Positions 2,148 through 39,094 of a DNA stretch of 44,707 bases are shown in pieces. Origin of the DNA: Escherichia phage phiEco273; sequence record PP786691.1. One strand, given 5' to 3'. The notes under the pieces were generated by a model. The model saw only the letters and a list, made by a program, of their open reading frames with translations, made no database searches and was not told the DNA's origin. The first letter of the stretch is position 1. Every line of letters starts with the position of its first letter. A program made the position numbers and the translations under genes.

Positions 2148-2199
2148 AAAAAAGTCCCAGTAAGTTTTATCTCACTGGGACTATATCACGCTTGCATAA

Positions 2200-3305: not shown

Positions 3306-3575
3306 TCATTTGCTCAGTCTCCAGTGTTTTCCTGCCCGCTCAATGGCAGGCTTCCGGCGTAATGTAATACGAACACCCATTGGTTGCAAGGAAGTCCGCA
3401 CATAGAATCCGTGCTTCGCTGCGAACTGGCGCAAGTAGCGGGTCTGCGTTAATGGCTTCACATCGTCGCGATAACTCCAGAACACAGAATCGCCCTCATT
3501 CGCATTCTCAGCCCATATTCGTATGCAATGCAGGCTAATGCTCCAGGAAAGCCGTTTTGCGCGTCTGCGGTCCAT
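3306..3575 (-). CDS. hypothetical protein
   Basis: 89-aa ORF in operon context. Confidence 0.35.
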   Translation of the reverse strand: MDRRRAKRLSWSISLHCIRIWAENANEGDSVFWSYRDDVKPLTQTRYLRQFAAKHGFYVRTSLQPMGVRITLRRKPAIERAGKHWRLSK

Positions 3576-3584
3576 TTTACCCCC

Positions 3585-3890
3585 TTATTTCGCAAGCTGG
3601 GCGAATAGCTCGCGCTGGGCTTTAATCCGGGCGACGTTTGTCACTGCCGTCTCACCGATCCCGAAGCGATACGCCAGGCGCTCGCGGGCAAAAGCCATCG
3701 CATATTCGCAGATTGCCACGCGCAGCGGTTCCAGTTCGTCCAGGCTGGCAAACATATCATCGAACGCGTGCATGATTCCCTGCTGGGCCAGGATGACAAC
3801 CTGGCGCGCGTCGTCTGCGTTGCCGTCTGTGTGCTTCGCTTCATACAGCTTCGCCACCGCCATTGTGTAATTCCAGATTAAAGCTCTCAT
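3585..3890 (-). CDS. hypothetical protein
   Basis: 101-aa ORF; ATG at 3890 preceded by GAGGA and by a TATATTGGTTGCACACCAACA element also found upstream of the 38330 gene. Confidence 0.5.
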   Translation of the reverse strand: MRALIWNYTMAVAKLYEAKHTDGNADDARQVVILAQQGIMHAFDDMFASLDELEPLRVAICEYAMAFARERLAYRFGIGETAVTNVARIKAQRELFAQLAK

Positions 3891-4105
3891 CGTTCAGTCC
3901 TCATGTTGGTGTGCAACCAATATAGCAGGGTGCTGGGGCGGGCGCAACCAATATTAATCACGCGTATGAAAAGTTGATCGCTATCTGCTGAAACTGCAAA
4001 CTGCATTTTTCACCCACCATTCTGCAACTCGCATTGGTTGCCTAGTTCATCGACGACCGCAATTTACATCATGTTGCCGTGCATTATGCAATCCAGGATT
4101 TTATG

Positions 4106-4290
4106 CAGTCTCAGACGAGGGGGGTGCCAGACCCCCCGTCTAGTCTGAAAGACTGGGGTGCTGTCCCGCTGTCCCGCTCCTCGCCAGGCCGCGTCATCCG
4201 GGGCGGGACAAGGGTGCTGTCCCGCTTTGTCCCGCCCCTGGTCTGTCCCGCTTTTTGTCCCGCTTAGTTTATGCAGTTTTATTGCATAAC
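4106..4290. repeat. Repeat element copy 1: imperfect GC hairpin (GACGAGGGGGG...CCCCCCGTC) followed by 6 direct and 1 inverted copy of GTCCCGC and TTATGCA(G/A)T motifs
   Basis: Direct reading; about 85 percent identical over ~185 bp to 32399-32585 in the same orientation. Confidence 0.8.
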
Positions 4291-4369
4291 TATTCACTAT
4301 ATTTACACTACACGGCAACCAATACGACCGCCTAAAAGCACGCAAAATGGCAACCAATGCGCGCAAAAT

Positions 4370-4600
4370 TTAATCTTTTAAATCGTCATCGGTCGCTGAA
4401 AGCGTGATGGGGATATCCGATTTGATGACCAAATTAGACGACCCATAGATGGCCCCGGTGTGCGGATCGGTATAGAAACCTATCACTCCGCGCTCCACCA
4501 TATCGTCGATTGCCTTCGTCGAAGTGCCACCTTTTGCCAGCCCAGCCTGGCGGACAATTGCCGATTTACTGAATCCAGTATGGTCCGGGTTGTCTTCCAT
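4370..4600 (-). CDS. hypothetical protein (76 aa from internal ATG overlapping primase stop)
   Basis: ORF 4370..4627; ATG at 4600 overlaps upstream stop by one base, suggesting translational coupling. Confidence 0.4.
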   Translation of the reverse strand: MEDNPDHTGFSKSAIVRQAGLAKGGTSTKAIDDMVERGVIGFYTDPHTGAIYGSSNLVIKSDIPITLSATDDDLKD

Positions 4601-6633
4601 CAGTTTTTCCAGTGCCGCATAAAGCACTTTCTCTTTTCGTTGCGCGGTCCGGCGGTGTTCTCTTCCTTAACCGCGGCCTTGCCTGCCGCCTTCGCCTGTT
4701 CAATAGCGAACGGTGCCAGGGCAACCGGTACGAGGTAGAGAGTCTCGTCGCGTGGCGTGGAGGCAATTGGCTTGACGTCCCATCCGGCAACCACGTCGCC
4801 GAAGTCTGGCCCGGTGCTGGTGGACTGGTGCGCCTCGAACGCTTCTGACTTGCGGAGATCTACCTTAACCTTGCACTTGAGCAGGACGAAGCCACGCGGC
4901 GCTTGCTTGATGCCGTTACGTGACTTCTCATGATACAGGTTCAATTGTCCGGGCTGGTTGTCGTCCGGCTGTTCCAGGAAGAACGCAGAATCGACAGCAC
5001 CATGCAGCGCGCCGGACCCGCGTGGCGTTCTGCTGCCGTTTGCACCTTTAGCCGGGTGGTGGATGACTCCCGCACTACCACCTGTATTTTCCGCGATGGC
5101 CTTCAGCGCTTTGACCACTTCACCCATATCGCTGGCGTTGTTCTCGTCGAACGGTTTAGCATCCGCGGACCGCAACGCAACAGTCTGGTTTAGTGAGTCG
5201 AACGCCACCAGGCCAACCGGTTCGCCGTTAGCGGTGCGGTTGATAAAGCTGATAACTTCGCGCAAGCCTGATTTGCTGGTGATATCCCAGCCGCGTGACT
5301 GCAGGTCTATAATGTGCAGCTTGTCCAGGTCGTGCTCATATTTAATCTGCAATGCTTCTTTACGCTGGTTGGAGGCTTCGCCACCTTCCGCATCGAAATA
5401 GAAGCAATGAGACTGGACGACCTTCGCACCGCCAAACGGAATACCGGCGGCAACCGCTCCCATCTGGCCCAGCACATAGAAAGACTTACCGATATTCGAC
5501 TCGCCAGCCATGTACCAGGTCGATTTAAAGTTAATCAACCCCTCGATAATCGGGTCGTGCTTACTGAACAGCGCAACCGGCTCGTTATCCAGATCCGCAT
5601 CGGTGCACACGCCGTATTCTTCGCCGTCGCCAACCGCATCAACGATATGTTCATAGCACGATTCCACTTCTTCGTCGTCCAGCCCCGGAAGGATGGCGGC
5701 GATTTGCTTACGGGACATATTGTGTGGCTCGACGTTCAGGTGATCCGGGATCCCGATAAGACGTAGCGCCAGGTGCTGGTGTCTGTTCAGTTCCGAGCAA
5801 CACTCGTTACCGGTGTGCATACACTTGAAACGGATCTCGCCATCCTTGACCATGATAGCCGTCGACCCTTCGCCGCTGTGCAGATGTTCGTTCGGGCACG
5901 GCACTTCATAACCGCGACCGGAAGATAACTCCTCGAATCCTGCCTGGAAGCACCAGTCCAGAATACCGTCTGCCACTGCGTCGTCACCCTGGGTAAGCTC
6001 GCGGCGTACTTCCTCTTTTTCCACCCCCAGCTTGTCAGCCAGGCGGAGCAGACGACGGACGCGGGCGCGCTTGCCATAGTGGCACTTAATAACAGACTGC
6101 TGGTGTGGCAGGTACATCAGGCGGTTTGTGTCTTTCGTGCAATCGTCGAAGTCCACATCTGACAGACCCAGTTGGTGTAATAGTGCATACTGGACGCGGC
6201 CCAGGTCTTCAGCCGGTACAGGCTTGTCAGTGAGTACCAGGAATCGAGCGCAACGCGTGCCGCCTTTCAGTGGGTGACGGTCGCCGGTTGTGGTGTGAAA
6301 TACGTGTTCCAGCCCCGCGTCAATGAACGCCTTACGGCAGCGGCGTAGGGTGCGGGTGTCGGTACGGTCAATATCGAAGAACAGGATCGAGCGGTCCACC
6401 GCACTGGTCTTACGACGCAATCCGTCACTGGTATACGCCACGATGCCGTCGGCCTTACGCTTGCGGCGCGCATACTCGGCTTTATCTTCCGTCTTGTTGA
6501 TATGCACCGAGGAGATTTCTTTCGCATCTTTGATAAATTCGAAAAATTCATCGGTGGTCATCTGGAAGTTTTCCGCCCTGGCTTTTTCGCCTTTTTTAGC
6601 GGGTCTTGTAACAGCGAATTTAATTAAGCTCAT
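4600..6633 (-). CDS. DNA primase/helicase (N-terminal primase-polymerase-like domain, C-terminal RecA/DnaB-like P-loop NTPase)
   Basis: 677 aa; Walker A GESNIGKS in C-terminal half; N-terminal region with acidic FFDIDRTD motif resembling prim-pol domains; AAGG RBS. Confidence 0.7.
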   Translation of the reverse strand: MSLIKFAVTRPAKKGEKARAENFQMTTDEFFEFIKDAKEISSVHINKTEDKAEYARRKRKADGIVAYTSDGLRRKTSAVDRSILFFDIDRTDTRTLRRCRKAFIDAGLEHVFHTTTGDRHPLKGGTRCARFLVLTDKPVPAEDLGRVQYALLHQLGLSDVDFDDCTKDTNRLMYLPHQQSVIKCHYGKRARVRRLLRLADKLGVEKEEVRRELTQGDDAVADGILDWCFQAGFEELSSGRGYEVPCPNEHLHSGEGSTAIMVKDGEIRFKCMHTGNECCSELNRHQHLALRLIGIPDHLNVEPHNMSRKQIAAILPGLDDEEVESCYEHIVDAVGDGEEYGVCTDADLDNEPVALFSKHDPIIEGLINFKSTWYMAGESNIGKSFYVLGQMGAVAAGIPFGGAKVVQSHCFYFDAEGGEASNQRKEALQIKYEHDLDKLHIIDLQSRGWDITSKSGLREVISFINRTANGEPVGLVAFDSLNQTVALRSADAKPFDENNASDMGEVVKALKAIAENTGGSAGVIHHPAKGANGSRTPRGSGALHGAVDSAFFLEQPDDNQPGQLNLYHEKSRNGIKQAPRGFVLLKCKVKVDLRKSEAFEAHQSTSTGPDFGDVVAGWDVKPIASTPRDETLYLVPVALAPFAIEQAKAAGKAAVKEENTAGPRNEKRKCFMRHWKN

Positions 6634-6643
6634 TGCCGTGGCC

Positions 6644-6973
6644 TTACTTCGAAGTTTTGTTATTGCGTACCCAGGAGCGCACGGTGCTCTGGTTAATCCC
6701 TGTCAACTCCGCGATCATCGCCCATGACTTTCCCTCGGCGCGCAAACGGATAACCTGCTTTTTGTATTCTTCCATTTCCTCATTGTGCTTCTGCAGCTTG
6801 CTCGCCGCCGTGCCGTTCAGCAATTCCAGCCTGGCGCGTAATTCTTTTTCTACACTGCGCAGGCGCTCGACCTCAAACAGCACCGCCCCAACGGCATCGG
6901 TATAAGCCCATGACCGGCTTGTTTCACTGCTAACAGTCTTCGTTAACATTTCGATTGCGTCGTTTACATTCAT
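6644..6973 (-). CDS. HTH DNA-binding protein, candidate transcriptional regulator
   Basis: 109 aa, coiled-coil middle, C-terminal HTH-like segment (KSWAMIAELTGINQSTVRSWV); first gene of leftward operon, directly downstream of a palindromic site. Confidence 0.55.
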   Translation of the reverse strand: MNVNDAIEMLTKTVSSETSRSWAYTDAVGAVLFEVERLRSVEKELRARLELLNGTAASKLQKHNEEMEEYKKQVIRLRAEGKSWAMIAELTGINQSTVRSWVRNNKTSK

Positions 6974-6987
6974 TGCTCTGCCCTCAG

Positions 6988-7033
6988 TTGGTTAATGACC
7001 AACGAAACTACACCCAAAACTGCACGGTGTCAA
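6988..7033 (-). promoter_or_regulatory. Leftward promoter (-35 TTGACA 7033-7028, 17-bp spacer, -10 TAGTTT 7010-7005) overlapping perfect palindrome GTTGGT-N5-ACCAAC (6988-7004)
   Basis: Sequence read on minus strand; palindrome lies at the predicted transcription start. Confidence 0.5.
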
Positions 7034-7148: not shown

Positions 7149-7177
7149 TTGACTCCCTTCTGCAACCAATCTAATAT
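7149..7177 (+). promoter_or_regulatory. Rightward early promoter: -35 TTGACT (7149-7154), 17-bp spacer containing GCAACCAA, -10 TAATAT (7172-7177)
   Basis: Near-consensus sigma70 hexamers with 17-bp spacing and AT-rich upstream tract. Confidence 0.55.
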
Positions 7178-9812: not shown

Positions 9813-10047
9813 AGTATTCGCAATCTTATTGATGTTTTTGCTCGGCGCGCTGGGATTTATCCTGCATTGCGTGCAAGGCGTGTTAATGGTGGCCTGGATG
9901 ATTCGCCATCCGACCCGCTGGCTGGATAACGGCTATAGCGAAGCCGCCGTCGATTGGGCAAAGAAGAACATCGACCGACCGCCATTAAGCTGGCTCTGGA
10001 GCGCCATTAACTACGTAACCAGAAATCTTTTTAATGAAAATGCTTGA
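9805..10047 (+). CDS. small membrane protein
   Basis: 80 aa with two hydrophobic helices. Confidence 0.4.
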   Translation: MNKVFAILLMFLLGALGFILHCVQGVLMVAWMIRHPTRWLDNGYSEAAVDWAKKNIDRPPLSWLWSAINYVTRNLFNENA

Positions 10048-10137
10048 CCGCGTAGGCGCAACCAAGTAGATTAGCAACCAAGCCGAACGGGGTGGCTTCC
10101 AATAACCCCGATACATGTGAAAATGAGGAATTGGAAA

Positions 10138-13437: not shown

Positions 13438-13715
13438 TGACACCAGAAGGCAAGATCCAAAGTTACCTTATGAAGCGGGTAAAAGCCGTCGGCGGATTCT
13501 GCCGTAAAGTGGCATGGGAGGGGCGCGCAGGAGCGCCCGACCTGATAATCATCATCAACGGCAAGATAGTTTTCGTCGAAGTGAAGCGCCCCGGCGGCAA
13601 ACCGAAGCCGCACCAGGTACGAGAACATGAGCGAATGGCCCGCCGCGGTGCGGACGTTCGCGTCATCGACAACATAGCCGACTGTGATTTATTGGTTGCT
13701 GAATTGGTCGCGTAG
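13437..13715 (+). CDS. VRR-NUC domain nuclease
   Basis: ATG overlaps polymerase stop (TAATG); sequence ...GAPDLIIIINGKIVFVEVKRPGGKPKPHQ matches the VRR-NUC D...E.K core. Confidence 0.7.
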   Translation: MTPEGKIQSYLMKRVKAVGGFCRKVAWEGRAGAPDLIIIINGKIVFVEVKRPGGKPKPHQVREHERMARRGADVRVIDNIADCDLLVAELVA

Positions 13716-13755
13716 CAGTATAGTTGGCAGGTTAGCCCTATCGAGGATTTTAGAA

Positions 13756-13929
13756 ATGGTTGAAGAAAAACGTTGTAGTAATTGCGGTTGCGTCAAGCCG
13801 CTATCCCAGTTCCACAAATACACCGGCAAAACTGCGCGCAGCCCCGATGGGTATCGTGCCGAGTGCAAATCGTGCCGCAATAAGAAAGAGCGTGAACGGC
13901 AGCGCCGCTACCGCGCAGCGCAAAAATAA
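13756..13929 (+). CDS. small zinc-ribbon protein (CxxC...CxxC)
   Basis: 57 aa from ATG 13756 with GAGGA RBS; CSNCGC ... CKSCRNK; basic C-terminus. Confidence 0.45.
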   Translation: MVEEKRCSNCGCVKPLSQFHKYTGKTARSPDGYRAECKSCRNKKERERQRRYRAAQK

Positions 13930-13972
13930 TTAATACGGCGGGCTTGTCCCGCCATTTTTGGGAGACATGACG

Positions 13973-16312: not shown

Positions 16313-16632
16313 ATACTGCATTCGACGCCATCGACTTTTCAGTGGCAATGACCAATCAGCTTTTTTCCTACGACAGCAAGACCGGCGTTATCCGCCTTAA
16401 GTCAACCGGCTGCAAGATTGGCAACCTCAATACTGCCGATGGCGGTACTCGTATCGAATGCAACGGCAAGACGCTGTCTGGCGCGCGCGTGGCGTGGATT
16501 ATCGCGACCGGCAATACAATCCCCCCAGGCTTCGCCGTTGTGTGCCGTCAGCGCACGCCAGGCCATTACGGCAACCGGATCAGCAATCTTTATTTGGTGG
16601 ACGTTGCGCGCGACCCTAACTTTTATGCGTAA
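16309..16632 (+). CDS. HNH-like (degenerate) endonuclease-fold protein
   Basis: 107 aa; pattern SYDSKTGVIRLK...ARVAWIIATG...GNRISNLYLV resembles HNH_3 homing-endonuclease layout with catalytic His apparently replaced. Confidence 0.35.
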   Translation: MNTAFDAIDFSVAMTNQLFSYDSKTGVIRLKSTGCKIGNLNTADGGTRIECNGKTLSGARVAWIIATGNTIPPGFAVVCRQRTPGHYGNRISNLYLVDVARDPNFYA

Positions 16633-16666
16633 ATTGGTTGCATAATCGTATTGGTTGCATTATATT
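16633..16666 (+). promoter_or_regulatory. Promoter-like element with two direct ATTGGTTGCAT repeats: -35 TTGCAT (16638-16643), 17-bp spacer, -10 TATATT (16661-16666)
   Basis: Direct reading; same architecture recurs at 38270-38310, 18292-18325, 22216-22248 and on the minus strand at ~3895-3960. Confidence 0.5.
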
Positions 16667-16669
16667 GAG

Positions 16670-16696
16670 GGTGTCCGGTTTGGACGCCTTTTTTAA
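16670..16696 (+). terminator. intrinsic terminator-like hairpin (GGTGTCC-GGTTT-GGACGCC + TTTTTT) inside the leader of the next gene
   Basis: 7-bp stem with one G-U pair followed by six T; overlaps predicted start site of the upstream promoter. Confidence 0.4.
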
Positions 16697-16713: not shown

Positions 16714-17172
16714 ATGAAAATTTTACAAGAAGAAAAAGATTACTGGTCCGCGCAATGCCTTAAAGCCCGCGAGCAGGCAGAGCGCGTCAGCGCGCTGGCA
16801 GATACCTACCTGTCAAGCTATGAAACGGAAGAAAAGCGCCGCATGGAGTTAGAGGATCGCTTCGAACTGCTTTTTGAATTGATGGGGATTATGCAGCGCA
16901 CAGGATACACCACCAGCGTGGCGCTAAACCGCATCACTGCCGAAGGTCTGCGCGAGCATTGTAAACGCGCCGAGGAGTACGTGCGACCGAAGGGTCGCCA
17001 GTCTAAGATCGACAGGAAAGACCTGGTGCTGATAGCGTGGCGTGCGAACGGCAGCTACTATTCCGATAGCCGACCTCTTGGCAAGGATGAGATGGCGCGG
17101 ATCCAGCGCGTACTTACCCGAGACAAGAAAACGGCCCTGTACGCACTGGACCCGCAGAATGACGAAGAGTGA
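16714..17172 (+). CDS. hypothetical coiled-coil protein
   Basis: 152 aa, GGAGA RBS. Confidence 0.5.
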   Translation: MKILQEEKDYWSAQCLKAREQAERVSALADTYLSSYETEEKRRMELEDRFELLFELMGIMQRTGYTTSVALNRITAEGLREHCKRAEEYVRPKGRQSKIDRKDLVLIAWRANGSYYSDSRPLGKDEMARIQRVLTRDKKTALYALDPQNDEE

Positions 17173-17849: not shown

Positions 17850-18316
17850 AATTACTTATTTGCGATTTGGATGGAGTTATTAACGGTTCAAGCGATGCGC
17901 GCGCCGACCTGGTGCCGGGCATAAAAACTAAATCCACCTTTTGGGCGAAGTGGCACAAAGCGCATATACGCGAAGATCTGAACATGGATATGCTGCCGCT
18001 GCTGACCATGTACAAAGAGCAAGGCTTCGAGATCGCGTATCTGACAAACCGGCAGCGAGAATGCTGGGACACCACAGCCGAGCAATTGGAAGTATTCCCT
18101 AGAGGCCGGTTGTTTATGCGCCACATGATGGACGACACCCCGCCACCAGAGTTTAAGGCGTGCGCCGTGTTCAAAATGGTCTGCTACGCGGACGTGTCGG
18201 AACTGGTCATCATTGAAGACTGTCCGAAGAACATCGCGGCAATTCGTCGGGCGTGCAGCGATTTGGTCCCGAAAATTTATGCGATAAACGTTGCAAAATT
18301 CACTTGCAACCAATAG
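17846..18316 (+). CDS. HAD-superfamily phosphatase (nucleotidase / polynucleotide 3'-phosphatase-like)
   Basis: N-terminal motif LICDLDGVI (DxDG[TV]); 156 aa. Confidence 0.5.
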   Translation: MKLLICDLDGVINGSSDARADLVPGIKTKSTFWAKWHKAHIREDLNMDMLPLLTMYKEQGFEIAYLTNRQRECWDTTAEQLEVFPRGRLFMRHMMDDTPPPEFKACAVFKMVCYADVSELVIIEDCPKNIAAIRRACSDLVPKIYAINVAKFTCNQ

Positions 18317-18380
18317 GTTGGTTGCAGTATCTTAATCACGTCGGGGGCAATATCGCCCCATCGCTAAAAAGGGTAATACT

Positions 18381-19520: not shown

Positions 19521-22199
19521 TCAACCAGCTAACTTAGCCTCCAGTTCTGAGATTCTTTGCTCAAGTCCTCGGGCGATAAACACGTTTAGTTCCGAATATC
19601 GCAAGCTATATCTATTTCCCGCTGGGGTTATCTTGATCGTAGACTTCGAATTATCATCGGGGTCGCTAATAACCTCGGAAGTCTCCTCCCATTCGTCGTA
19701 GCACACGAATCCATACTTCAAGGGGTCCAGACCGTAAGACTGCATGATTTCCATCACTTTCTGCACGGTAATACCGGCATGGAGCCTTGCCTCGTCCCCC
19801 TCTTCAGCTACTCGCGCAAGCCACTGGAAAATACCAACCTCGCGGGCGATTTCTTTAGAAGCGCCCATCTCGGCCTCTGTTAAACCCCTAACCTCGGTCT
19901 TGAGTCTTGCGTCCGAGGTCTGTATGGCCCCGTTTGCTGCGTAGACCGCGCTAACACGGGAGACTGCACTGCCGATCGGGTATGCGTTGTCCGCAGCGGG
20001 GGACAGCGAGCCGTCGCTCGTAAAGCTCCACCGATCCTTCCTCGTCGTAGACCCTTGTTCCGTTGTAGCAATCGTTATGCCGCACTGGAGGTTTGTCGTA
20101 GACCAGCCAGAAGACGCCTGAATACGAATACCAGCGGCAGCACCCGTAAAACTTACACCACTGTGTCCTGCAAAAGATAGCCACAAGTTGTCTCCCGGCT
20201 GAGTTGCCCCCTTAGTGCCAGCCATTGTGCCGTCAAAAGCCACACCTCGGATGTTTATATTAGCGGTCGACCCGTTTCGTGGGGTGATTAAGGCTATTTC
20301 ATTAGCTGTGTTATTTACTTGTTTAAGACCGCGACCGTTTAATACTTCCAATCCGTTGTAACTTTCCTGCGTTAGCTTATAAAGCCCCATAGGCACATCG
20401 AAACCTATATAAAGGTCGCCGTTGTTGCTGGTCGCGAATGTTTGCCTCCGGTCGGCGTTGGTCTTATTCAATGGGGTTGTTAGCAACCTAAACCAGCCGC
20501 CGTGGTTAGTATCCGAAGCGGTCCCGTCCATGAGGAAGTGCTGCGACACGTTTGAGTGGTCCGTATATGTAGTACCAGTCCACGGACGCGACCCATACCC
20601 CCCAATAAGCACTCCTGTAGCCACGCCGGATCCGTTTGCCGGTTTTGAGTAGTTGTGGAAAACCGCGGACCCCCCGCCGACATTCGCAATACCAAAACTT
20701 GCCTCCGTGGCGTTGCTGGATTCCCAAACAACCCCGTCACCGCTGCCCTCCCCAGAAGTTACGGGCCGTAGTGTAGCCGTGCCAACCCCAATCTTCGGTG
20801 CATTCACTTTACCCGTAAAAGTCGGCGACGACCCAGAGTGATACAATTCAAACCACTGCGACCAGTTGCCGGTATCCGGGTTACTAATCCATCGCATAAA
20901 ACGACGCCCGCCGATGTATATTGTATACGTCTGAATGCAACTCTTCGGGCCGTTAGCGCCGATTTGCTGCACCAGCAAGCAACCCGCTTCCTTGACGGGA
21001 TAGTTAAGCTCCGGTGTGGCTTTTGCCGATACGGATTGACGGTAGAATCCAGCTTTATCGCCGGTCAGGGTGTTAAGGTCTACACTATCCAACGACCCCT
21101 TCTGTTCATGCATGACCTGAAGGTTAGCGCGCGCCCCCTGTTCGTCCGATGCGCCTGTCCCGCCGTCCCCGATCGCCACGTCCCCATTTGGCCCCAGCTT
21201 CGCAAGCTCAATGGCGCTCACACTGCCCGACAACCCGTTAATCCCATTATCGTTTCCCGCGTAAACTTTGACGCGAGCAGTCGTGTAGTCAACGTTAATC
21301 GCAAAAAATGTGTCACCAGCGCGGCCGAACACCCCTGAACTGAATCTGAAAGGGGTCATCTCGCCTGCTTGGAACTGAGAAATATCATCGACGCGCCAGA
21401 ATCCGCCCTTGACCGAATCACGCAACCGCTTGAGCATATCCTTTACGCCAGTTGGTGCCGGTAGCATTACACCAGCATACGGCACTTTCTGCGATGCGTC
21501 CGCGCTGTTGGCGAAGCCTTCAGCCTCGTCGCGAAATCCTTTAGCCTGGTCTTTAGCGGTTACGGCCTGCGATTTAGCTGTCTCCGCAGCGGTCTTCGCC
21601 GACTCTGCTGCCGTTTTTGCTGTCTCGGCTTTACCTTGTGCTGTCTCCGCGGCGGTCTTAGCGGCTACGGCGGCATCTTTCGCAGAGTTGGCGGTGTTCT
21701 TGAATCCTTCAGCCTCGTTACGAAAGCCTTGCGCCTGGTTCTTCGCCGTGATGGTCTGGTCTGCAATCTGCTGCAACTCCACCGGGTCCACGTCTTTAAG
21801 CAGGCTAGACAGGTAGCCCCATGACATACCCTGCACAACTTGCCCACTCGGCAGCGTGACCGAGATTTCCTCTTCTTCTCCGAAGATTGCGCGCCAGTTG
21901 TTCTCATCTGCGATCATCAAGCGCAACGCTTTTTGCGCCTGGACGGTTACGCCCATCGTCGCCAGCGACATGGTATCGCGCTTAACGCCGTCCCACGCAA
22001 GGCCGGTCGCCGTCGGGCCGTCGAACGGCAGTACCAACGTTAGCGCGGTTGCGCTTTCAATGGAAGCGATCGCTACGGTGTAGGGTACTTGTCCTACCAC
22101 CAGCGTTAAGAAATCGCCTGCTTTAAACGCGGTGAACGTTGTGCCAACCCCTACTACCGCCTTGCTGTTGTTCGTTACGGATAGCGTACCCGCTGCCAT
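19521..22199 (-). CDS. tail fiber protein with Ala/Lys-rich repeat shaft and C-terminal intramolecular chaperone (peptidase S74-like) domain
   Basis: ORF 19521..22256 begins on a TTG; first ATG with GAGGA RBS at 22199; repeats AKTAAETAKSQAVTAKDQAKGF; C-terminal ...SDARLKTEV...LEQRISELEAKLAG typical of autoproteolytic chaperone domains. Confidence 0.7.
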   Translation of the reverse strand: MAAGTLSVTNNSKAVVGVGTTFTAFKAGDFLTLVVGQVPYTVAIASIESATALTLVLPFDGPTATGLAWDGVKRDTMSLATMGVTVQAQKALRLMIADENNWRAIFGEEEEISVTLPSGQVVQGMSWGYLSSLLKDVDPVELQQIADQTITAKNQAQGFRNEAEGFKNTANSAKDAAVAAKTAAETAQGKAETAKTAAESAKTAAETAKSQAVTAKDQAKGFRDEAEGFANSADASQKVPYAGVMLPAPTGVKDMLKRLRDSVKGGFWRVDDISQFQAGEMTPFRFSSGVFGRAGDTFFAINVDYTTARVKVYAGNDNGINGLSGSVSAIELAKLGPNGDVAIGDGGTGASDEQGARANLQVMHEQKGSLDSVDLNTLTGDKAGFYRQSVSAKATPELNYPVKEAGCLLVQQIGANGPKSCIQTYTIYIGGRRFMRWISNPDTGNWSQWFELYHSGSSPTFTGKVNAPKIGVGTATLRPVTSGEGSGDGVVWESSNATEASFGIANVGGGSAVFHNYSKPANGSGVATGVLIGGYGSRPWTGTTYTDHSNVSQHFLMDGTASDTNHGGWFRLLTTPLNKTNADRRQTFATSNNGDLYIGFDVPMGLYKLTQESYNGLEVLNGRGLKQVNNTANEIALITPRNGSTANINIRGVAFDGTMAGTKGATQPGDNLWLSFAGHSGVSFTGAAAGIRIQASSGWSTTNLQCGITIATTEQGSTTRKDRWSFTSDGSLSPAADNAYPIGSAVSRVSAVYAANGAIQTSDARLKTEVRGLTEAEMGASKEIAREVGIFQWLARVAEEGDEARLHAGITVQKVMEIMQSYGLDPLKYGFVCYDEWEETSEVISDPDDNSKSTIKITPAGNRYSLRYSELNVFIARGLEQRISELEAKLAG

Positions 22200-22219
22200 A
22201 GCTAAATCCTCGTAATTGG

Positions 22220-22248
22220 TTGCAATCCTGGTTGAACGGTGTAATACT
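22220..22248 (+). promoter_or_regulatory. promoter-like element with TTGGTTGCAA motif (-35 TTGCAA 22220-22225; -10 TAATAC(T) ~22242-22248)
   Basis: Direct reading upstream of lipoprotein gene; shares motif family with early promoters. Confidence 0.45.
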
Positions 22249-32328: not shown

Positions 32329-32398
32329 TATGCAGTCCCCCCTTTTTATGCAGTTGCCGTCGGTCATTGTATCAGCGAATTTAAAACAAACCTTATTC

Positions 32399-32712
32399 AG
32401 TCTCAGACGAGGGGGGCCATTGACCCCCGTCTAGTCTGAAAGACTGGGCTTTGTCCCGCCTGTCCCGATCGGCTAAAACCCGCGGCAGCACTGGCGGGGA
32501 CAGGGGTGCTGTCCCGCTTTGTCCCGCCTCATTCTGTCCCGCTTTTTGTCCCGCTTACTTTATGCAATAAAACTGAATAGACATTCACATTTTGGGGGCG
32601 GGACAGATCGGGACAGCACCCCTGTCCCGCTTTTAATTTATGCAATTGTGGTGAGTAAATATGCAGTTTTAGAGGTGCGGGACAAAACGGGACGTCCCGC
32701 CTGTCCCGCTCC
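32399..32712. repeat. Repeat element copy 2 (GC hairpin + GTCCCGC array, extended by additional direct/inverted heptamers and TTATGCA motifs) filling the GT-chaperone / tape-measure intergenic gap
   Basis: Direct reading; ~15 heptamer copies; first ~185 bp about 85 percent identical to 4106-4290. Confidence 0.8.
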
Positions 32713-32713
32713 G

Positions 32714-37479: not shown

Positions 37480-38181
37480 TTACTCGTCGCCCATTTTAGC
37501 GATGATTTCACCGGCCTGTTTCGTTAAGTCAGTGATACCGAAGCTGTGGCCCATAGTGATTTTCGACTTCACATCTTCGACAACCTGCGTCGGTTTGCTA
37601 GGCGCACCACCGGCTGGCGTGCCAGCCAGGACGGATGCAAAATCGGCGTTATTACGGAACTCTTTTTCAAGCTCTTCCATAGTCAGCGCGGACGGTTTGC
37701 CATCCTGCAAAACACGCACTTTCAAGCTGCCGTCTTCGCCGTCTTCCAGCGTGAGGCGGTCCATAACGTGGCGTTGCATAATGCCAGCATTCTTACCGAA
37801 TAACTTCGAGGCCAGGTCTTTGGCAGCGCTGCCGATGGTTAGATCGTGGATCTGCTTGCGGTAGGCTTCGATTTTTCCCGATGTGTCTGCTTCGTGTTTC
37901 GCAAACTTATCTTTCCAGGACTTGTCGATCGCTTCGAGGTCGCCATTTTTGCGCGCGGCGGCTTCCTCTTTCTCTTTCGCAAGGCGCTCGGCTTCGGCGC
38001 GACGTTCGGCTTCGGCTTTCTTCTCGCTAACCAGCTTCGCGTTATTGTCTTTCAGACCCTTAATCTCCGACTGTACTTCTTCGGCGGTCATGAACGTTGA
38101 TTTATACCCGTCACCATCGGCAACAAAAAGCGCCTTCATACCTTCCGGCAACGCGTCATATTCTGCTTTAGTAAGTTTCAT
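37480..38181 (-). CDS. scaffolding protein
   Basis: ATG 38181 with GGGGGA RBS; acidic, coiled-coil rich (KAEAERRAEAERLAKEKEEAAARK), immediately upstream of capsid gene. Confidence 0.55.
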   Translation of the reverse strand: MKLTKAEYDALPEGMKALFVADGDGYKSTFMTAEEVQSEIKGLKDNNAKLVSEKKAEAERRAEAERLAKEKEEAAARKNGDLEAIDKSWKDKFAKHEADTSGKIEAYRKQIHDLTIGSAAKDLASKLFGKNAGIMQRHVMDRLTLEDGEDGSLKVRVLQDGKPSALTMEELEKEFRNNADFASVLAGTPAGGAPSKPTQVVEDVKSKITMGHSFGITDLTKQAGEIIAKMGDE

Positions 38182-38329
38182 GCTATCCCCCTGGGATTGT
38201 GGCAAAGCGGGCCACCCGCTTGACTTCACGCCTTAATATTATCAGCGATAAAAATAATCGCAAAATTCGCTTGCAATCCGAGTATTGGTTGCATTATATT
38301 GGTTGCACACCAACAACGAGGACACAAAA

Positions 38330-39094
38330 ATGAGACTTACTAAAGACATTAAAAATCAGATTCTGGCTAACATCCTGCGCGACCACGAAATCGCAACCGA
38401 AGCCAAACAAATCATGATGGACTCGCGCGACCTGGCTTATGCCATTACGCTGGACTGTATGCCGGAAGGCATTCGCACGTTCGCCGAGCTACTCGCGCGC
38501 ATTGAAGCAATCGGCGATGACCCGTCGCAGATGTACGGCGTCTGCGTATACACCAACAAGGCGACGTATAGTTATAACACAGACCGCCCAAAAGGTATCG
38601 GCAGCGTTTACGACGCCACTTTCGAAATCAACGCAGGCGGAAACGTCCGTACCGTGTCATTGAGCGGAGACGGACACCGATTCCGAGTACATCGCGGATA
38701 CTGGGAGTATAAATACATGAATAAACTGTCTCCCGATCTCGGCGATATTGTGCCAGGGTATGAGGAAATTTTGTTAGCGTCAGTGTGCGAAGTCGACGAC
38801 GACGGGAAAGCGCTGCCGATATACATGCCACGCGGTCGTATAGACTACCCGGCGGACCATGATTTCTGTAAGCGCCTGGACCGTAACGACAAGGCCCGCC
38901 GTGAGTTGCGGGCTAAGTATGACGCGTTCAAGTTGACCGTTACCGGTGTGCTGGACCTGCACAATACTGACAAGAAGCTGATTAAGGCATGGCCTGAAGT
39001 TGAGCAATTCATCCCTTACCCGGACAAGCCAAAATCCACGGCGGTGGCGCTGGACGTGAAAACACTCAACGAGATTTGCGGCATTCCGCGCTAA
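38330..39094 (+). CDS. hypothetical protein (254 aa), opposite-strand moron within head module
   Basis: ATG 38330 with GAGGA RBS; preceded by TTGGTTGCAT/TATATT promoter-like element and followed by bidirectional terminator. Confidence 0.55.
   Translation: MRLTKDIKNQILANILRDHEIATEAKQIMMDSRDLAYAITLDCMPEGIRTFAELLARIEAIGDDPSQMYGVCVYTNKATYSYNTDRPKGIGSVYDATFEINAGGNVRTVSLSGDGHRFRVHRGYWEYKYMNKLSPDLGDIVPGYEEILLASVCEVDDDGKALPIYMPRGRIDYPADHDFCKRLDRNDKARRELRAKYDAFKLTVTGVLDLHNTDKKLIKAWPEVEQFIPYPDKPKSTAVALDVKTLNEICGIPR

Follow-up and report, generated by a model that had tools for sequence, protein, structure and literature searches.

An octamer within sigma70-type promoters of a Dhillonvirus as a candidate shared operator, and a predicted promoter fused to a terminator at 16633-16696

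The octamer TTGGTTGC recurs within the promoter regions of Escherichia phage phiEco273. We favor, with somewhat better than even confidence, the explanation that one DNA-binding protein reads this word inside sigma70 promoter cores and thereby exerts coordinated negative control, with the promoter at 16633-16696 fused to a terminator. The window, i.e., the whole stretch of 44,707 bases analysed here, is the complete, circularly permuted genome of a Dhillonvirus, a virulent E. coli siphophage resembling HK578 and SO-1, and its two ends are bridged by one wrapping gene. It shares ~91% identity with TheodorHerzl (Bas14) and others, and we obtained the gene map by projecting the TheodorHerzl proteins onto the window. 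Non-coding DNA amounts to ~6.0% of the genome, and Rfam and tRNA scans of the window gave no matches. The core comparison covered six Dhillonvirus genomes, the window and five others. The helicase-primase gene on the minus strand, a single 754-aa ORF in relatives, is split in the window into the overlapping frames 4600-6633 and 4370-4627, which points to a frameshift or else to an error of sequencing around 4620-4640.

The octamer or its complement, which the sequence-only reading had described as occurring in most intergenic or promoter regions, is present in 19 copies in the window against ~1.8 expected (mean 1.81, sd 1.25, maximum 6, among 100 dinucleotide-preserving shuffles). The claimed preference for intergenic over coding DNA is borne out, as 14 of the 19 exact copies lie in the non-coding 6.0% of the genome (binomial p=7e-14), and two further copies fall within the last 25 nt of genes. 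The one-mismatch variants, only 2 of 40 of which are non-coding, show no such enrichment, indicating that the word is sharply defined; its extended form is aTTGGTTGCa. Among the over-represented 8-mers of the window, the octamer ranks fourth, after three that are dispersed in coding DNA and enriched also in phages lacking the octamer. The words ACGGCAGC, ACGGCAAC, and CGCTGCCG, each ~10-fold over-represented and located mostly in coding DNA, are top 8-mers also in related octamer-lacking phages, and their excess could reflect codon or peptide bias or a Chi-like signal. Each of the 14 non-coding octamers adjoins an early, accessory, or replication gene, and none falls between the genes of the structural block, which has a roughly equal amount of non-coding DNA. 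The chance of all 14 copies falling into the early/accessory half of the non-coding DNA is 0.52^14, about 1e-4.

The motif was found at every locus named previously, with full octamers on the plus strand at 4034, 16634, 16651, 18318, 22216, 38285, and 38299, and on the minus strand at 3913, 3944, 4315, 4350, 7162, 10058, 10074, and 18306. At the remaining named site, 6988-7002, there is no full octamer but a palindrome TTGGT-N5-ACCAA. Copies absent from that earlier list are one at 13692 (plus), accompanied by a degenerate copy at 13704, and three intragenic ones at 3380, 22330, and 27648 (all plus). The 21-mer TATATTGGTTGCACACCAACA indeed precedes both the gene at 3890 (minus) and the gene at 38330 (plus), as had been noted. 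The five other Dhillonvirus genomes carry 16-23 octamers each, compared with ~2 expected, at homologous places. We aligned all intergenic regions of the six genomes to obtain a conservation footprint, in which 120 of 128 octamer columns (94%) are invariant compared with 1756 of 2944 other intergenic columns (60%, p=1e-17). The flanks and the spacers between paired octamers vary across the six genomes.

We mapped promoters with a sigma70 position-weight (PWM) scan and a consensus promoter scan. By PWM mapping, 15 of the 19 copies are located at -39, -34, -22, -21, -8, or -5 of promoter-like sites, and 16 of 19 overlap a promoter when the 3380 copy, at a weaker internal candidate, is counted. 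Three positions recur. Copies at -39 (3944, 13692, 16634, and 22216) always point along transcription, and their final four bases open a -35 hexamer TTGCnn, although this class is partly circular because TTGC itself lifts the -35 score. Copies at -22, two bases upstream of the -10 hexamer, are direct at 16651, 18318, and 38285 and inverted at 7162 and 10058, and those at -8/-5 over the start are direct at 3913 and 38299 and inverted at 10074. The inverted copies at 7162, 10058, 10074, and 18306 thus occupy the same positions as direct ones. The octamer-bearing promoters score in the top 0.02% of the genome, and most of them contain two octamers, 12 to 35 bp apart. Several have good hexamers of their own, such as TTGACT-17-TAATAT, TTGACC-17-TAGATT, and TTGCAA-18-TATATT. 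Since copies of the word point in either direction and are placed within spacers as well as across start sites, it does not behave as a recognition element for the polymerase and resembles a repressor operator.

The promoters that carry the octamer serve diverse transcription units. On the minus strand, the promoter of a leftward small-gene operon (3913..3951) contains octamers at 3944-3951 (-39, with TTGCGC as the -35 hexamer) and 3913-3920 (-8) and a -10 TATATT at 3924-3919; the octamer at 3913 extends into the palindrome TTGGTTGCACACCAA. A conserved octamer at 4034..4041 (plus) lies in a repeat region, termed B below, without a clear promoter, and two more (4350-4357 and 4315-4322, within 4315..4357 on the minus strand) stand upstream of an array of GCGGGACA, where weak promoter candidates overlap the 4315 copy. 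The promoter of the operon that begins with a helix-turn-helix (HTH) gene and includes the helicase-primase gene (6988..7033, minus) has a -35 TTGACA at 7033-7028 and a -10 TAGTTT at 7010-7005, and the palindrome TTGGTcattaACCAA at 7002-6988 covers its predicted start. This conserved promoter (TTGACA-17-TAGTTT) was identified by eye and listed by neither promoter scan; for the PWM scan, the region was masked by a doubtful ORF. A full octamer is found at this promoter in the divergent relatives L006 and L007 and none in L168 (phage CHD5UKE2), where the palindrome that the rest of the genus carries at the HTH gene promoter is missing as well. In the adjoining plus-strand segment 7046-7136, a near-consensus promoter, TTGAAA-17-TGtAATAAT, has a T8 terminator about 30-60 nt or less downstream. 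The pair would give a conserved RNA of ~50 nt, transcribed divergently from the HTH gene; the ORF 'hyp49' annotated at this place in a relative is probably not a gene.

On the plus strand, the rightward early promoter (7149..7177, TTGACT-17-TAATAT, score 12.3) carries an inverted octamer in its spacer at 7162-7169, and the promoter of the single-stranded DNA-binding protein gene (10044..10081, TTGACC-17-TAGATT, score 12.9) carries two inverted copies, one within the spacer (10058-65) and one covering the start (10074-81). The promoter of a zinc-ribbon gene (13692..13724) has the octamer at -39 (13692-99), a degenerate octamer TTGGTCGC at 13704-11, and a -10 TATAGT at 13719-24. In the promoter TTGCAA-18-TATCTT at 18304..18333, the -35 is overlapped by an inverted octamer (18306-13), and a direct copy occupies -22 (18318-25). 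The promoter of a lipoprotein gene (22216..22248) combines an octamer at -39 with a -35 TTGCAA and a -10 AATACT; in genome L003, a degenerate copy in the lipoprotein promoter has become a perfect second octamer at -22. The promoter of the accessory Nmad5 gene (38271..38306, TTGCAA-18-TATATT, score 10.5) contains octamers at -22 (38285-92) and -8 (38299-306). The Nmad5 (nucleotide-modification-associated) gene itself occupies 38330-39094, and in TheodorHerzl and SO-1 an unrelated gene is found behind the same promoter (38103-38621 in genome L001), suggesting a swappable accessory-gene slot behind a conserved promoter. A weak candidate for an internal promoter, TTGCAA-17-TACATT (3361..3389, minus, score 9.9), overlaps the intragenic octamer at 3380, which recurs at the homologous place in relatives.

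In the explanation that we favor, the octamer would be the target of one sequence-specific DNA-binding protein, and its copies would lie within promoters of the host sigma70 type from which the replication, early, and accessory genes are transcribed. Given the placement at -39, -22, and -8/-5, the bound protein would cover the -35 hexamer, the spacer, or the start site and close the promoter. Such negative control would span about ten transcription units, with the promoters of the structural genes exempt. Enrichment, promoter placement, occurrence in both orientations, conservation, and spread over three lineages were observed directly; protein binding, repression, and timing are what we infer from them.

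The same copies could be read as positive elements recognised by an activator or a sigma-remodelling factor in the manner of a MotA box. In five promoters, the octamer provides a -35 that falls short of consensus (TTGCnn), always from position -39 and in one orientation, and the HTH protein described below matches the family Sigma70_r4_2. An activator site would, however, not tolerate copies in the spacer and over the start in both orientations, and several promoters have a near-consensus -35 apart from the octamer; promoters such as TTGACT-17-TAATAT and TTGACC-17-TAGATT would not need an activator. We therefore regard positive control as improbable. A slimmer chance still is given to the view that no dedicated binding protein exists and that the octamers belong to a promoter cassette spread by recombination, with linkers for gene shuffling as proposed for the PeSL elements of T4-type phages, a precedent for this view. 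The promoters at 18290 and 38255 do share the longer stretch gcaaaattcRcTTGCAA-N8-TTGGTTGCA, and the genes behind the promoters at 16661 and 38295 differ among relatives. Nevertheless, only the 8-mer is invariant while the flanks diverge, and a match of just 8 bp would not suffice for homologous exchange. The inverted copies and the persistence of the exact word across genera whose helicase-primases are ~47% identical point to selection on the word itself.

A role of the octamer in replication deserves consideration as well. Two paralogous non-coding regions, B (4100-4297) and A (32329-32713), hold 16 of the 18 copies of GCGGGACA in the genome and share a conserved hairpin cagactagacgggg...cccctcgtctgagactg; they could be origins or non-coding RNA genes. 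Small ORFs of relatives in these regions look spurious, since the region A copy in the window has in-frame stops, and the equivalent regions of the Edwardsiella phage eiAU carry CGCCCCG repeats. Region B is located just downstream of the helicase-primase gene and region A near the tape-measure gene. The window has five octamers in region B and none in region A, and eiAU has about 10 and five, respectively. These clusters in repeat regions beside the helicase-primase gene, clearest in eiAU, suggest a replication role in addition. The octamer could accordingly be an initiator box, with a replication protein binding clusters at the origin and promoter sites coupling transcription to replication. 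The adjacency of the clusters to the helicase-primase gene in both the window and eiAU is in line with this reading, as are the asymmetric site of 8-9 bp in both orientations with variable spacing, the labelling of both regions A and B as repeat regions in the SO-1 record, and the site in the promoter of the helicase-primase operon. It is weakened by the octamer-free region A of the window, by the finding that no helicase-primase segment is specially conserved among the octamer-positive lineages, and by the many window copies, the majority, that are single promoter sites far from regions A and B. We consider an initiator box unlikely, and it can coexist with the repressor-operator explanation.

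The octamer is not confined to Dhillonvirus. In eiAU, which belongs to another genus and whose helicase-primase is ~47% identical to that of the window lineage, it is the top 8-mer of the genome with 23 copies, compared with 1.75 expected, found in comparable promoter layouts. We further compared 38 IMG/VR loci around helicase-primase homologs, among which an uncultured lineage, E1, has 8-11 octamers per 20 kb; divergent relatives reach 9 copies in 6.1 kb and 13 in 10.9 kb. A scan of IMG/VR for octamer pairs (TTGGTTGC-N1-5-TTGGTTGC) gave, among the matches listed, one Dhillonvirus and mostly chance matches and 9-bp coding repeats. The three octamer lineages share ~47-50% protein identity and differ in their regulators (HTH or XRE-type), with the exact 8-mer being the same, both in promoters and in the repeat regions that resemble origins. 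The paper describing the related Edwardsiella phages reports no phage-encoded transcription factor among its detections (PMC3025963).

As for the protein that reads the octamer, the leading candidate is a 109-aa HTH protein encoded at 6644..6973 (minus) by the gene that opens the helicase-primase operon. Among 30 small window proteins scanned against Pfam, it was the sole helix-turn-helix protein, with bit scores above the gathering cut-offs for HTH_23 (30.8/24.6), HTH_28 (28.5/25.0), and Sigma70_r4_2 (27.9/25.7). Across 25 homologs, the last 60 residues do not vary, while the first 45 are freely replaced. The predicted model (pLDDT 87) consists of one long helix followed by the C-terminal HTH. 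In a fold search, only the HTH region of ~35-45 residues matched solved DNA-binding domains (34-46 aligned columns, about 1 Å r.m.s.d.). The full-length protein has no informative relative in the PDB by sequence or by fold, nor a full-length one among 1.84 billion representative proteins, and the family is tiny. The homolog in CHD5UKE2 is a divergent 150-aa protein (20200-20649) with a different N-terminal half. The HTH domain, the invariant C-terminus, and the site at its own promoter fit an autoregulated repressor, and we tentatively assign it a possible, though far from assured, role as the reader. What speaks against it is that eiAU and lineage E1 keep the octamer without a homolog of this protein, having an XRE-type gene in its position, and that CHD5UKE2, within the genus, retains 20 unchanged octamers although the recognition helix of its homolog differs at five residues and the promoter of that homolog has no site.

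The second candidate is a 57-aa zinc-ribbon protein with a basic tail (13756..13929, plus), with an octamer promoter and a terminator (13937-13953) of its own. An octamer-pair promoter lies just upstream of the zinc-ribbon gene in two of the three octamer-positive lineages; in eiAU, where the promoter layout is the same, the pair stands upstream of gp21, with the ribbon reading frame next downstream. The zinc-ribbon protein is nevertheless intact in the octamer-negative phage SE1, in which no other dispersed motif was found that might co-vary with it, and we consider it an unlikely reader. Phyletic profiling of all frames within 10 kb of the helicase-primase gene found no family that occurs at every octamer-positive locus but at none of the octamer-negative loci. 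The helicase-primase itself was rejected since no 100-residue segment is closer among octamer-positive lineages than to octamer-negative ones. An XRE-type reader in eiAU and E1 was likewise rejected, as the two lineages have unlike recognition helices (SRPFISQLLN and SQSALSFVQN) and XRE proteins occur in octamer-negative phages as well. With no phage family within 10 kb tracking the octamer, the reader may be another phage protein or a host protein. A host protein is a possibility to which we give about one chance in four in our own estimation, and the rest of the probability falls to readers that are none of these three. The E. coli sites of CytR (GTTGCATT), PdhR (ATTGGT-N3-ACCAAT), NtrC, FNR, and sigma54 are not known to fit the invariant TTGGTTGC core or the spacing. 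The proposal of an operator set for a single phage regulator therefore stands in part. The sites are promoter-embedded, operator-like, and common to early, replication, and accessory units, but a single phage regulator is not supported, because eiAU and E1 are equally rich in octamers without the HTH homolog and no family within 10 kb tracks the octamer.

The promoter/terminator module at 16633-16696 follows the end of the HNH gene at 16632. Its first octamer (16634..16641, plus) lies at -39, with its last four bases starting the -35 TTGCAT (16638-16643), and the second (16651..16658, plus) is a spacer copy at -22, separated from the -10 by two bases; both are invariant in six genomes and are separated by a variable stretch of 9 nt. 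The conserved -10 TATATT (16661..16666, plus) completes the promoter of the gene at 16714, with a core reading TTGCAT (16638-43)-17 nt-TATATT (16661-66) and a PWM score of 9.9, above the genome's top 0.02%. Transcription is predicted to start at about 16672-16674. Directly after the -10, which ends at 16666, begins an intrinsic-terminator-like hairpin with T6 (16667..16694, plus), composed of a core stem 16670-76/16682-88, a loop GGTTT, and T6 at 16689-94, so that the predicted start falls in the 5′ arm. The T6 is followed by a GGAG ribosome-binding site and the ATG at 16714. The hairpin closes the upstream helicase-Dcm-HNH unit 35 nt past the HNH stop codon. The full hairpin has a stem of 7-10 bp and a folding energy of -14.5 kcal/mol (z=-4.1), whereas RNA starting at 16673 retains a stub of 4 bp with -5.4 kcal/mol (z=0.2), no better than shuffled sequences. 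Among six sequences, two versions of the stem, GGGTGTCC/GGACGCCC and GGGTGTTCC/GGAACGCCC, both keep the pairing while the loops differ. In three of five relatives an extra gene directly follows the module. A simple terminator scan of the window did not list this hairpin, and a terminator is annotated at the homologous place in the WF5505 record from another laboratory. With the hairpin, the U tract, the location at the end of a unit, and conserved pairing, the element has the characteristics of an intrinsic (Rho-independent) terminator.

The overlap of promoter and terminator postulated for 16633-16696 is therefore upheld by sequence, folding, and comparative data, with the start site as the inferred part. 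Because the -10 ends one base before the hairpin, a polymerase arriving from upstream would transcribe the whole of 16667-16694, make the full hairpin, and terminate, while a polymerase starting at the 16661 promoter would begin within the 5′ arm and yield RNA unable to form the hairpin. The simplest reading is that read-through stops while promoter-initiated transcripts would escape, provided that the start lies where predicted. ONT-cappable-seq maps of Pseudomonas phages commonly show terminators inside 5′ leaders and directly behind promoters, which raises the rival reading of the hairpin as a regulated premature terminator within the 5′ untranslated region of the transcript from its own promoter. 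A second -10-like hexamer, CATAAT (16641-46), after the first octamer could serve such an attenuator. It lacks a usable -35, though, and no promoter with a score of 6 or more emerged at this place from the PWM scan; moreover, the stem begins one base past the end of the conserved TATATT, and a second module shows the same geometry. We thus deem attenuation rather doubtful. That second promoter-into-terminator module (2153..2188, minus) is without an octamer, and its extended -10 TGaTATAGT runs into a hairpin with T6 that abuts the ATG of the holin gene (-19.8 kcal/mol, conserved in six genomes). The right arm of the holin hairpin may hold the ribosome-binding site, in which case only promoter-initiated RNA would be translatable. 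These were the only two promoter-hairpin modules found, and neither their hairpins nor their promoters are related to each other in sequence.

Several known systems resemble parts of this arrangement. In phage P1, operators of the C1 repressor are asymmetric words scattered over the genome, overlapping many promoters and controlling many operons, and the octamer is likewise a dispersed asymmetric word over many promoters. Whereas P1 is temperate with a known repressor and an operator of 17 bp, the present phage is virulent, and its word of 8-10 bp is unrelated in sequence to the P1 operator. DnaA boxes and the iterons of the P4 alpha protein (ori and crr) are asymmetric words of 8-9 bp in both orientations and with variable spacing. 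The octamer also clusters beside a replication gene and sits in promoters, but it is unrelated in sequence, and most of its copies are promoter sites. The MotA box of T4 is a phage-specific word in host-type middle promoters that defines a temporal class, always at one position and in one orientation, where it replaces the -35. The octamer is similarly a short phage-specific word embedded in host-type promoters, but it occupies three positions in two orientations, unlike a MotA box.

The PeSLs of T4-type phages are short intergenic elements in which a sigma70 promoter is fused to a stem-loop terminator, with the stem-loop mostly between -35 and -10 or over the -10 (PMC2839356, PMC4122927). The module at 16633-16696 is likewise a composite of promoter and stem-loop at a variable gene boundary that would isolate the upstream unit and start the next. 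It differs in that the stem begins right after the -10 and covers the predicted start site, in the octamer carried by its promoter, and in its siphovirus host genome, where two unrelated modules are found instead of many near-identical copies that flank shuffled genes and mediate recombination. The operator regulon and the composite promoter/terminator are thus already known kinds of element, and the octamer network itself is undescribed. Our literature search found nothing on the octamer word or on promoters or regulators of Dhillonvirus, and no binding, start-site, or expression data for any Dhillonvirus.

Dhillonviruses are common E. coli phages that are used in the BASEL collection, in studies of defence systems, and in therapy work, with no publication known to us on the timing of their genes. 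The octamer marks out some ten promoters as putatively co-regulated and offers a defined bait with which to find the regulator, and the regulated sigma70 promoters and promoter/terminator junctions are portable parts for phage engineering. The mismatch between the distribution of the octamer and that of the candidate regulators poses a testable puzzle, as the word outlives the regulators that seem to accompany it. A tentative possibility is that the octamer network predates, and is independent of, the adjoining small DNA-binding genes, with the reader being a host protein or an unrecognised non-HTH phage protein. If true, these virulent phages would have co-opted a conserved host protein for the timing of their early genes, or, alternatively, an unrecognised non-HTH phage protein would couple origin binding to a global shut-off of promoters.
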